Positions 3,654 to 15,636 of a stretch of DNA of 17,116 bases are shown one piece after another (the stretch's first letter is position 1; each line of letters begins with the position of its first letter). The DNA comes from Octopus sinensis (taxonomy: Eukaryota), in assembly GCF_006345805.1 (NCBI RefSeq), contig NW_021824968.1, positions 1-17,116 on the forward strand, in the 5' to 3' direction. The translations under genes and the position numbers were made by a program. Below the pieces are notes generated by a model, which worked only from the letters and a program-made list of their open reading frames with translations, was not told the origin of the DNA and ran no database searches.

Positions 3654-3912
3654 ATATATATAATATTAATTAGAGACAAAACCACTATTTTGCAAACAAA
3701 CAAGAAAGACTTAATCAATACATAAAATTTTAATAAAATTTATTATTTAATTTTTATAAAATTTATGTATTGATTAAGTCTTTCCTTGTTTGTTTTGCAA
3801 AATAGTGGTTTTGTCTCTAATTAATATTATATATATTTTACTATAAAATTGGATTTATCCTAAATCTGATTTTTTCCCTGTAAATTTGGATTTATTCCCT
3901 AATTATATTATT
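3654..3912. mobile_element. Foldback element: ~80 bp inverted arms (3654-3732 / 3757-3836) plus one-sided tail 3837-3912, embedded in (TA)n; probably Penelope-like terminus or MITE
   Basis: TAATATTAATTAGAGACAAAACCACTATTTTGCAAAC... is the reverse complement of ...GTTTTGCAAAATAGTGGTTTTGTCTCTAATTAATATTA, with about 3 single-base indels. The class assignment is inference. Confidence 0.7.
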
Positions 3913-3970: not shown

Positions 3971-4049
3971 GTGTGTGTATGTATATATATATATATGTAT
4001 TTATAGAGGGAGTATATATCTTTCTATAGACTACATATATATATATATA

Positions 4050-4230
4050 GTTAATCCAAACATTAACAAGCAAGGAAAAAACAACACGCGAGGACGTGGA
4101 ATAAGTGCAGTGTTATTGGAAGCTCAGAATGGAAAGGAAAGGAAAGAAAAATGAGCTTTTCGTCAGAAATTTAGAAAAAGTCCGAAGAAGGGAAGACGAA
4201 GAAAGAAAACCGGCAACGATACACACGCGG

Positions 4231-4232
<2 letters not shown>
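4050..4232 (-). mobile_element. Solo, diverged copy of the hammerhead-bearing element found in the 13921-15426 array; ribozyme partly deleted
   Basis: Shares GTTAATCCAAAC, CGCGAGGACGTGGAA, TTATTGGA.GCTCAG, GAGCT.TTCGTC.GAAA, GAAGGGAAGAC and AACG.TA.AC with 15230-15426. Flanked by (TA)n on both sides. Confidence 0.85.
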
Positions 4233-4299: not shown

Positions 4300-4421
4300 A
4301 TATTCATAGGAGTATATATCTTTCTATACACTTTTATGTAACAATTTATATATATATATATATATATAAGCACATACATTTATAGGTGTGTAATATTTAT
4401 ATGCATATAATTAATACACTG

Positions 4422-8866: not shown

Positions 8867-9263
8867 ACAAAGTGGAGTTGTGGGGTACCGCAAGAGTGGA
8901 ATTATATAGGAAAGAAGGTTTGAAAATGCAATTTAAAAGATGTTTATTTACTTTACCGGTTCACTCTTCGGAAAAAGATTGTCAAAAGTAACATGTGGAA
9001 GTTTGGTTGCGTTAATTATTGGTTGTTGCAAATTGCTACATTACATATATACAGTCTTTGGTAACAGGGACATGTTAAGGACATAAAAAAGTTCAACAAG
9101 TTCAACAAGACTGTATATATGTAATGTGGCAATTTGCAACAACCAATAATTAACGCAACCAAACTTCCACATGTTACTTTTGACAATCTTTTTCCAAAGA
9201 GTGAAACCGGTAAAGTAAATAAACATCTTTTAAATTGCATTTTCAAACCTTCTTTCGTATATA
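8867..9263. mobile_element. Foldback element: ~150 bp inverted arms (8910-9058 / 9107-9256), 48 bp spacer, one-sided 36 bp tail (8867-8902), in (TA)n; Penelope-like inverted terminus
   Basis: The arms are reverse complements with about 3 differences. Each arm holds a decayed type I hammerhead layout followed by AATAAA. Confidence 0.8.
9175..9217 (+). ncRNA. Degenerate type I hammerhead-like motif (mirror copy at 8949-8990 on minus strand)
   Basis: UACUU [UUGACAA] UCUUU-uucc-AAAGA GU GAA ACCGGU A AAGUA. Stem I is UACUU/AAGUA, stem II is UCUUU/AAAGA, and stem III is palindromic ACCGGU. The core differs from CUGACGA at 2 positions, so it is probably inactive. Confidence 0.5.
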
Positions 9264-9509: not shown

Positions 9510-9886
9510 GAAGGATTTTTTAGTCGAAGAAATCGACCCTAGGACTTATTCTTTGTAAGTCTAGTATTATTTATTCGATTGCTCTCTTTTGCCGAACCGC
9601 TAAGTTACGGTGACGTATACACACCAACATCGGTTTTCAAGCGATGGTAAGGGGAGGAACACATATATAAAGACACACATATACTCACACACACACACAT
9701 GAATATATGCATATACATATATATGACGAGCTGCTTTCAGTTTCCGTCTACCAAATCCACTCATAAGGATTTGATCAGCCCGAAGATATAGTTGAAGACA
9801 CTTGCCCAAGTTGCCACGCAATGGGACTGAACCTGGGAACCATATGGTTGGAAAGCAAGTTTATTACCGCACACCCATGCCTATAC
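9510..9886 (-). mobile_element. Near full-length tRNA-derived octopus-type SINE (family B) with internal (TA)/(CA) microsatellite
   Basis: Minus strand has a tRNA-like head GGGTGTGCGGTAATAAACTTGC...CAGGTTCAGTCCC, body GGATTTGGTAGACGGAAACTGAAAG, and 3' part TAACTTAGCGGTTCGGCAAAAG. Clearly homologous to 15470-15636. Confidence 0.85.
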
Positions 9887-13620: not shown

Positions 13621-13817
13621 ATATAAGATAATTATATACACAACTCTGGTCATGTGACAGTAAGCTACCATTTTAAAAAAGTTTATTTTACTGTCATTTC
13701 TTTACAACTTGACAACAGTGTTTCAGATTGGCATCGTCGAAGGTCTAGTAAGTGTAACATCTTGGACGAACGGTAAGAAAACCACGATTAAAACTATAAA
13801 TGTCAGTTAATGGAACA

Positions 13818-13920
13818 CTGTGTCTTTCAGAAGCCTTAATTGCAACCATGTTGTTTGGGATTTACTCCTACTGGGCGCTACATTATGCACATTTCGTTTA
13901 CTGTCACCCCGGGCCAACAA
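13818..13920 (+). mobile_element. Degenerate 5' part of a family B SINE, cut off at the start of the tandem array
   Basis: CTGTGT...AGAAGC...TTGCAACCATGTTGTTTGGG...TACTGTCACCCCGGGCCAACAA aligns by eye with the reverse complement of 15517-15620 (AGAAGATTGCTTCCCAACCACATGGTTCC...AGCCTCGGGCCGACCAAAG). Confidence 0.55.
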
Positions 13921-15360
13921 ATATATATATACGACGGGCTTCTATCACATACATATATACCTATATATAGTTAATCCAAACAAGAAAGCACAAAAAAACA
14001 CAACAGCGCGAGGACGTGAACAAATATAGTATTATTGGACGCTCAGGAAAGAAGGAAAGAAGGAGAGTTTAACGTTTCGAGCGGAGCTCTTCGTCGGAAA
14101 ATATATATATACGACGGGCTTCTATCACATACATATATACCTATATATAGTTAATCCAAACAAGAAAGCACAAAAAAACACAACAACGCGAGGACGTGGA
14201 ACAAATATAGTATTATTGGACGCTCAGGAAAGAAGAAAGAAGGAGGTTTTTACGTTTCGAGCGGAGCTCTTCGTCGGAAAATATATATATACGACGGCTT
14301 CTATCACATACATATATACCTATATATAGTTAATACCAAACAGAAAGCACAAAAAAACACAACAACGCGAAGGACGTAGAACAAATATAGTATTATTGGA
14401 CGCTCAGGAAAGAAGGAAAGAAGGAGGGTTAACGTTTCGAGCGGAGCTCTTCGTCGGAATATATATATATACGACGGCTTCTATCACATACATATATACC
14501 TATATATAGTTAATACCAAACAGAAAGCACAAAAAAACACAACAACGCGAAGGACGTAGAACAAATATAGTATTATTGGACGCTCAGGAAAGAAGGAAAG
14601 AAGGAGGGTTAACGTTTCGAGCGGAGCTCTTCGTCGGAATATATATATATACGACGGCTTCTATCACATACATATATACCTATATATAGTTAATCCAAAC
14701 AAGAAAGCACAAAAAAACACAACAACGCGAGGACGTAGAACAAATATAGTATTATTGGACGCTCAGGAAAGAAGGAAGAAGGAGGGTTTAACGTTTCGAG
14801 CGGAGCTCTTCGTCGGAAAATATATATATACGACGGGGCTTCTTCACATACATATATACCTATATAAAGTTAATCAACACAAGAAAGCACAAAAAAACAC
14901 AACAGCGCGAGGACGTGGAACAAATATAGTATTATTGGACGCTCAGGAAAGAAGGAAAGAAGGAGGGTTTAACGTTTCGAGCGGAGCTCTTCGTCGGAGA
15001 ATATATATATACGACGGGCTTCTATCACATACATATATACCTATATATAGTTAATCCAAACAAGAAAGCACAAAAAAACACAACAACGCGAGGACGTGGA
15101 ACAAATATAGTATTATTGGACGCTCAGGAAAGAAGGAAAGAAGGAGGGTTTAACGTTTCGAGCGGAGCTCTTCGTCGGAAATATATATATACGACGGGCT
15201 TCTATCACATACATATATTCCTATATATAGTTAATCCAAACAAGAAAGCACAAAAAAACACAACAGCGCGAGGACGTGGAACAAATATAGTATTATTGGA
15301 CGCTCAGGAAAGAAGGAAAGAAGGAGGGTTTAACGTTTCGAGCGGAGCTCTTCGTCGGAA
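13921..15360 (-). repeat. Tandem array of 8 x ~180 bp units, each with a hammerhead motif (retrozyme-like / Penelope-terminus-derived satellite)
   Basis: Units start at about 13921, 14101, 14281, 14461, 14641, 14820, 15001 and 15181. They are near-identical and differ mainly by 1-nt indels. The last unit continues into element sequence to about 15426. Confidence 0.95.
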
Positions 15361-15362
15361 AC
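15328..15362 (-). ncRNA. Minimal type I hammerhead ribozyme motif (most complete copy; 7 more at ~14067-14100, 14246-14280, 14428-14460, 14608-14640, 14786-14819, 14967-15000, 15148-15181)
   Basis: Minus-strand RNA reads GUUU CCGACGA A GAGC-ucc-GCUC GAA ACGU U AAAC. Stem I is GUUU/AAAC, the core is C(C)GACGA, stem II has 4 bp, GAAA follows, and stem III is palindromic ACGU. Predicted cleavage is after GUU (15332/15331). Confidence 0.75.
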
Positions 15363-15469
15363 ATAGGAGAAGGGAATATCCAGAGAAGGGAAGACAGAGG
15401 AAAAAAAATCGCTAACGGTATACACAGGTAGATATTTATACACACACATACACATATCTATATTACAAA

Positions 15470-15636
15470 GAGGGTCTGCCTTCAGTTTCCGTCTACCAAA
15501 TCCAATCACAAGGCTTTGGTCGGCCCGAGGCTAGAGCAGAGGACAGCTGATCAAGATGCCATGCAGTGAGTCTGAACCTGGAACCATGTGGTTGGGAAGC
15601 AATCTTCTTACCACTTAGCTACACTGCTGCCTATAT
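15470..15636 (-). mobile_element. 5' half of tRNA-derived octopus-type SINE (family B)
   Basis: TTCAGTTTCCGTCTACCAAATCCA.TCA.AAGG...CTGAACCTGG.AACCAT.TGGTTGG.AAGCAA is shared with 9736-9860. Confidence 0.85.

Follow-up and report, generated by a model that had tools for sequence, protein, structure and literature searches.

Results

Eight tandem units of about 180 bp on an Octopus sinensis contig

The window analyzed here is a 17,116-nucleotide stretch of Octopus sinensis DNA (contig NW_021824968.1). Its features, with the evidence for each in parentheses, are as follows:

13919..15361, no strand assigned: tandem array of 8.0 units of 179 to 181 bp (TRF and unit comparison)
15230..15430, minus strand: complete copy of a ~200-bp element, forming the outermost (5'-most) unit (end-to-end alignment with 4050-4232; contig depth and loose ends)
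15362..15430, minus strand: upstream portion of the element, which occurs a single time and is not included in the repeat unit (alignment; high depth in 4/4 runs to ~15420)
15328..15362, minus strand: putative minimal type I hammerhead motif in its native context, predicted cut 15332/15331 (parse, descriptor, and comparison with PMC4209133)
14067..15181, minus strand: seven further copies of the motif, with helix I of 3, 1, 3, 2, 2, 4, and 3 A-U pairs (parse, junction, and descriptor)
15180..15229, no strand assigned: TA/CA-rich spacer of ~50 nt, present in every unit (unit comparison; depth ~190- to 2,500-fold below that of the hammerhead bin)
15183..15207, minus strand: part of the spacer, made of (TA)n and ~16 nt similar to the terminus of the SINE-like repeat at 9715-9885 (highest-scoring match beyond the array at 9711)
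13919..13969, no strand assigned: last spacer, continuous with the non-repeated flank; its TTT also occurs in the element, immediately 5' of the core (junction analysis)
4050..4232, minus strand: solo relative of the element, diverged in sequence and bordered by (TA)n tracts (blastn, direct repeat)

Across the window, TRF resolved the array into 8.0 copies with a period of 180 (96% matches), and the motif was exact in 8/8 units, spaced 180, 180, 180, 179, 181, 181, and 180 nt apart. Each unit is non-coding, has a GC content of 37 to 39%, and carries one type I motif. The preliminary description, which reported eight ~180-nt units each with a minus-strand hammerhead motif, was therefore correct on this point. 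Within its boundaries for the array (13921..15426), positions 15362-15426 proved to lie outside the repeat and to be unrepeated upstream sequence of the element. We also agree that no protein is encoded. Pfam returned no match to an RT or GIY-YIG domain in 12 hand-picked ORFs of the window; three sub-cutoff Pfam matches in two array-spanning frames were treated as noise. By eye, a 21-nt stretch between TTTCAG and GTAAGT on the plus strand (13721-13753), ~170 nt left of the array, looks micro-exon-like, which may be chance.

Pairs of units differ at 1 to 18 alignment columns. Many of these differences are homopolymer shifts, as would be expected if a long-read assembler had over-expanded a locus of one or two copies. 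Such an artefact would also fit the observation that no aligned contig spans 15180-15470 and that the array junction is absent among the joints listed. However, variants are common to sets of units, unlike random error: u3 and u4 are one column apart, u3 to u5 have a deletion and a substitution in common, and u1, u6, and u8 carry G at a site at which A accounts for ≥97% of depth in close relatives. Mixed haplotypes could give such common variants. Nevertheless, because the variants are common to several units, we argue that the array is real and consider over-expansion by the assembler quite unlikely. Adjacent units were not significantly more alike than other pairs (neighbor-similarity test, P = 0.14).

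A Penelope-type minimal hammerhead motif with C at core position 4

When parsed on the minus strand, the motif places C3 at 15358, 15178, 14997, 14816, 14637, 14457, 14277, and 14097. In the outermost copy, helix I has 4 bp, one of them G-C, the core has a U4C change, A9 is followed by an additional A, and helix II has 4 bp and a 3-nt loop. GAAA, a palindrome at 15.1-16.1, and U17 complete the motif. The parse supports the cut at 15332/15331 and its equivalents, as given in the preliminary description, as the predicted position. In the other seven copies, spacer sequence stands in for the 5' strand of helix I, so that this helix is made of A-U pairs only; helix I is thus without a G-C pair in 7/8 units.

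The architecture was compared with that of the minimal hammerheads of Penelope-like elements (PLEs). The extra A between 9 and 10.1, the G10.1-C11.1 pair, the 4-bp helix II, and GAAA followed by the 15.1-16.1 palindrome are all present, and H17 is U in seven units and A in one. The core box departs from the CUGANGA(H) of the PLE type: it reads C-C-G-A-C-G-A, or U4C, in 8/8 units, with the other core positions and C3-G8 kept. Helix I, typically ~3 to 5 bp in the PLE type, has 4 bp with G-C in the outermost motif and the 3, 1, 3, 2, 2, 4, and 3 A-U pairs listed above in the others, and its pair probability is ≤0.034 in 8/8 units. A relaxed minimal-hammerhead descriptor matched only these eight sites in the window; in 300 Markov shuffles, the chance expectation was 0.057 matches per window, falling to 0.003 when helix I had to be ≥3 bp. 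At the level of sequence, these results support the assignment of the motif as a putative Penelope-type minimal hammerhead.

A covariance-model search for hammerheads, suggested earlier as a check, did not add to this assignment: no hammerhead was matched by Rfam, either in the window (E ≤ 1) or in 13700-15600 (E ≤ 10). All Rfam matches were sub-threshold and in microsatellite, and they were rejected. Nor does the minimum-energy model fold the motif as a hammerhead; the four motifs, of the eight, for which a fold was computed gave a minimum free energy (MFE) of -5.5 to -7.2 kcal/mol, but with the core paired and not in the active fold. The earlier proposal that the motif folds as a minimal type I hammerhead therefore stands by descriptor and parse but not in the minimum-energy fold, and it had not flagged the U4C change.

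Most of the array unit belongs to an abundant dispersed element

Each unit combines ~130 nt from the 3' end of an interspersed, high-copy element of ~200 bp with the ~50-nt TA-rich spacer. The solo copy at 4050-4232 aligned with the element of the array at 70.8% over 260 columns (blastn; E = 6 × 10−26), with an alignment score of 205 compared to 28.6 ± 4.3 for 200 shuffles, and this homology extends beyond the array into 15362-15430. The solo copy has the canonical U4, and the 3' half of its hammerhead is deleted. It is flanked by a TSD-like direct repeat (23/24; 4009-4032 and 4309-4332) that was equaled by 0/834 other windows. Two further structures of the window also lie between (TA)n tracts. 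At 3660-3830, a long near-palindrome was noted by eye that is MITE-like or another inverted insertion. At 8903-9263, a head-to-head inverted structure has arms (8960-9058 and 9107-9205) that are 98% complementary (~90% overall) and is extended by ~38 nt at its left end alone, resembling inverted-copy-plus-tail Penelope-like insertions; near 8960-8980 and near 9195-9215, it carries a string that is similar to a hammerhead core but nearly devoid of helix II.

The region 15180-15470 was present, whole or in part, in 20 of the 24 sequencing runs listed (10 studies, including four coded organisms). Depth was analyzed in 4 of those 24 runs (X1, X3, X4, and X16), using contigs at 85% likeness. Three of these runs are DNA by guess and X16 is RNA by guess, and the species or individual may differ from the source. 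The sample is biased toward the query, since these runs were chosen for their best coverage of the region and a copy as diverged as the 71% solo copy would fall outside it. In all, 5,504, 19,111, 16,600, and 4,830 contigs aligned in the four runs. Summed depth, which does not equal copy number, ranged from 1 × 10^5 to 6 × 10^6 over 15230-15420, compared to 5 × 10^2 to 2.6 × 10^4 over 15180-15209. The ratio of the hammerhead bin to the spacer was 1,516, 192, 273, and 2,535, again as depth and not as copy number. Loose ends before 15222 consisted of (TA)n in the three DNA-guess runs (agreement 0.50 to 0.57), and behind 15407 the family continues into the end of the solo copy in X3, X4, and X16. 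Zero depth at 15430-15470 was rejected as evidence of absence because this stretch is a skipped repeat. The depth profile and the loose ends together indicate that the abundant form is a short element dispersed in TA tracts; in the four runs, the family occurs mainly as this ~200-bp element without the array spacer.

Insertion into (TA)n, as seen in the loose ends, together with the direct repeat around the solo copy, is a feature of Penelope-like insertions, although it is not exclusive to PLEs. A search for a partner ORF found no RT plus GIY-YIG among the 12 hand-picked ORFs, and the listed loose ends finish in TA-rich sequence. ARAGORN detected 0 genes, promoter and B-box scans were at chance level and uninformative, and exact-pattern scans gave 0 matches in metagenome contigs, viral contigs, and prokaryote genomes. 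The element at 15230-15430 is likely a solo pseudo-LTR or a non-autonomous Penelope-like derivative, with motif architecture and target pointing to a Penelope origin.

C4 is the majority state among close relatives

Among contigs ≥85% alike, U4 made up 27, 36, 30, and 28% of depth in the four runs, and C4 was the majority (64 to 73%) at 15357. CpG decay alone was considered as the cause of the U4 share and found insufficient, given that three other CpG sites vary at only 2 to 11%. Being the majority among close relatives, C4 is a subfamily trait rather than decay at the array locus. Variants at H17 among the relatives were C and A, never G at ≥5%, which would be consistent with constraint, although the signal is too weak to serve as evidence.

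The anatomy of the array points to amplification in place

On the minus strand, the order of parts is the complete element, a spacer, seven repetitions of the element from the core onward followed by a spacer, and then flank. Collapsed to one copy, the array reads flank-spacer-complete element-flank, which is an ordinary insertion. The repeat junction is a TTT microhomology located just 5' of C3, ~27 nt 5' of the predicted cut rather than at it. The core is thus kept at the unit junction, unlike ends defined by cleavage. In addition, a circle of the unit would not contain 15362-15430 and so could not supply the unrepeated ~70 nt, arguing against a circle origin.

Taken together, we think it probable that the array is a local tandem amplification of one abundant hammerhead-bearing element copy that is likely Penelope-derived and whose ribozymes are predicted to be poor cleavers. 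In the sequence of events that we propose, a short non-autonomous element would first have entered a TA/CA microsatellite, in keeping with the insertion sites of its relatives. A first, microhomology-mediated duplication would then have joined two TTT triplets, one immediately 5' of the hammerhead core and the other ~50 nt into the flank, and unequal exchange or slippage could have expanded the resulting 180-bp unit to eight. Growth of the array would accordingly have taken place at the DNA level.

The spacer is likely captured target-site DNA. Its best match outside the array is at 9711 (score 30, with the next at 26), and its non-TA part alone matches at chance. A repeat that we take to be SINE-like occurs in the window in two copies, 9715-9885 and 15465-15635 (alignment score 187; no tRNA by ARAGORN), and the second copy directly adjoins the element of the array. 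Spacer depth was above the single-copy level (~980 in X1, 25,800 in X4, and 22,700 in X3, compared to mostly 10 to 80 for listed pieces), so other loci may carry the spacer, with the reservation that depth is not copy number.

The array junction (15359->15180) was absent among the 10 + 8 joint rows listed for the four runs; contigs with this junction may instead count as running over the end of the stretch (8, 55, 36, and 3 contigs). Three single-contig joints go back from element to spacer (15312->15182 and 15413->15205 in X3 and 15310->15185 in X4), with other letters in between.

We also considered whether the tandem formed at the time of insertion, with an RT copying an RNA that carried a 3'-transduced tail (the spacer) eight times via template jumps, seven of the copies stopping at the 5' edge of the hammerhead. 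PLEs are described as forming partial tandems with an optional 30- to 40-bp tail and as favoring (TA)n (PMC8557442, PMC3846280), and the end of the spacer recurs weakly to the right of the element. However, this model needs seven stops at one place other than the cleavage site, the spacer passes smoothly as (TA)n into the flank, and the candidate TSD around the element of the array was not significant, being equaled or beaten by 42/775 other windows. Its formation at insertion is therefore doubtful.

Cleavage is predicted to be low, and predicted circles fold like shuffles

Amplification in place would leave eight hammerhead motifs in a row, for which self-cleavage is predicted to be low, although some activity may remain. 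Among the 44 published minimal-hammerhead rows compared from the supplement of PMC4209133, by our count 43 have a G-C pair in helix I and all 44 have U4. Minimal hammerheads are reported there to have no activity as monomers and low activity as dimers; dimer cleavage is also the subject of Lunse et al., as cited in the review PMC6765202. The U4C change considerably decreases activity in vitro, yet it permits viroid infectivity in vivo (PMC3088659). Against a reading of low activity, helices I of 2 to 3 bp and U17 are common among the published minimal motifs (PMC4209133 supplement).

A read-through minus-strand RNA could pair neighboring motifs as a double hammerhead, although such pairing would likely yield little monomer or circle. 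When the double-hammerhead fold was forced, it lay 18.8 to 25.6 kcal/mol above the MFE in 7/7 pairs; forcing the monomer hammerhead cost 3.9 kcal/mol for the outermost motif, compared to 4.8 to 8.9 kcal/mol for the others. These costs were rejected as proof of inactivity because they ignore tertiary contacts and have no positive control. Predicted circles of 7/7 monomers had energies of -22.1 to -25.8 kcal/mol, z scores of -0.67 to +0.22, and 49 to 56% of positions paired (100 shuffles each; no known retrozyme as control). The circle folds are thus no better than those of shuffles, and the stable self-pairing of non-LTR retrozyme circles, described as high in PMC7229834 and PMC7761336, was not seen.

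The array differs from a classical retrozyme

The preliminary description had proposed a retrozyme, that is, a source of circular RNA with an array made by rolling-circle reverse transcription. In its full form, the 180-nt unit would be transcribed, cut by double hammerheads, circularized, and returned to the genome in multimeric form by a Penelope RT. Several observations agree with this proposal. Tandem non-coding units of 150 to 450 bp with GC of <50% and one type I motif each are what PMC7229834 describes for retrozymes, and the array, with a unit size of 180 and GC of 37 to 39%, falls within the published range. The motif is present in 8/8 units, its palindromic helix III would suit dimers, the spacer depth exceeds the single-copy level, and the family is present in X16, the run guessed to be RNA. 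We rejected X16 as proof of transcription, however, since its RNA label is guessed, its contigs are without strand, and its profile mirrors that of DNA.

In two tested features, the array departs from classical retrozymes. In the account of PMC7229834, these elements have a canonical hammerhead of type I, in which the helices are normal and loops 1 and 2 make contact, whereas the motif here is of the minimal type with U4C, and the circle is not self-paired. Furthermore, the repeat junction lies away from the cut and 5' of the core, the 5' part of the element is unrepeated, and helix I is degraded in 7/8 units. Spacer depth is 190- to 2,500-fold below that of the element, the junction is absent among the joints listed, and the family is mainly dispersed without the spacer. 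The retrozyme, circular RNA, and rolling-circle proposal is therefore not supported by these results: the anatomy fits duplication in place, and a true non-LTR retrozyme is unlikely at this locus.

Discussion

Comparison with known systems

The closest parallel to the motif is the minimal hammerhead of metazoan PLE pseudo-LTRs (Cervera and De la Peña 2014, PMC4209133). Common to both are the type I topology, the extra nucleotide between 9 and 10.1, G10.1-C11.1, a palindrome (15.2-16.2 in that description) without loop 3, a short helix I, a pyrimidine-rich 5' side, and a mostly dispersed occurrence as solo copies. The array differs in having C4 (U in 44/44 rows), a short 4-bp helix II, a helix I without G-C in 7/8 units, and no linked RT-endonuclease ORF seen in the window. 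No cephalopod is among the 44 alignment rows compared from the supplement of that paper.

In its tandem organization, the array resembles the PLE-derived "non-LTR retrozymes" of Li, Clavereau and Pollet 2026 (10.64898/2026.07.22.740005), whose units are homologous to a PLE-type terminal repeat and carry a type I motif each. Those authors define such tandems operationally by ≥2 consecutive units, a descriptor-matching motif, and an MFE of < -5 kcal/mol, and they propose an origin by local amplification of the PLE terminal repeat. Among the dimers that they tested, 8/9 did not cleave and 1/9 did. Eight units place the array near the typical maximum of their families (75% have ≤7). It differs from them in that its unit includes ~50 nt of non-element spacer and its core is U4C. 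No mollusc class is named in the account of their sample of 35 species.

Canonical metazoan non-LTR retrozymes of coral, mussel, and axolotl (PMC7229834) also have a non-coding 150- to 450-bp unit with GC of <50% and one hammerhead. As described there, they combine a canonical motif with thousands of unit copies, self-paired circles, and proven cleavage and circular RNA. By comparison, the array has a minimal motif, the folding of its circle does not exceed that of shuffles, and its family is abundant as the solo element.

With respect to known Penelope-like families, six short element strings gave no match in Naiad context in the supplement of PMC8557442, where line wraps can hide matches. 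One incidental match fell in an unrelated GC-rich entry, and four were chance 8-mer matches. By eye, the ends of the Octopus Naiad consensus in PMC8557442 look unlike those of the element. Active Penelope-like families have been described in O. vulgaris, with no ribozyme mentioned in the available text (PMC13282606). A full-text literature search found no paper in which the motif is printed, and no cephalopod hammerhead family was found in the literature covered, which included the 44 alignment rows from the supplement of PMC4209133.

Implications for the element family

These comparisons favor the view that the array is likely a solo or truncated terminal repeat of PLE type that carries a minimal hammerhead and was multiplied locally. 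The pattern is a known one: Penelope-type minimal hammerheads occur in thousands per animal genome, and terminal repeats form local tandems. There is also a small chance that the locus represents an early stage in the making of a retrozyme. An amplified ~200-bp hammerhead-bearing, SINE-like family with a C4 core would have undergone a chance duplication that aligned eight motifs, and read-through RNA cut by double hammerheads would then give 180-nt circles. If so, Penelope-type elements could spread with a crippled ribozyme core, or C4 would be tolerated in vivo. Natural C4 and U4 versions of one family, together with a natural multimer, provide a simple test bed for the question of whether minimal hammerheads must cleave for the element to spread.
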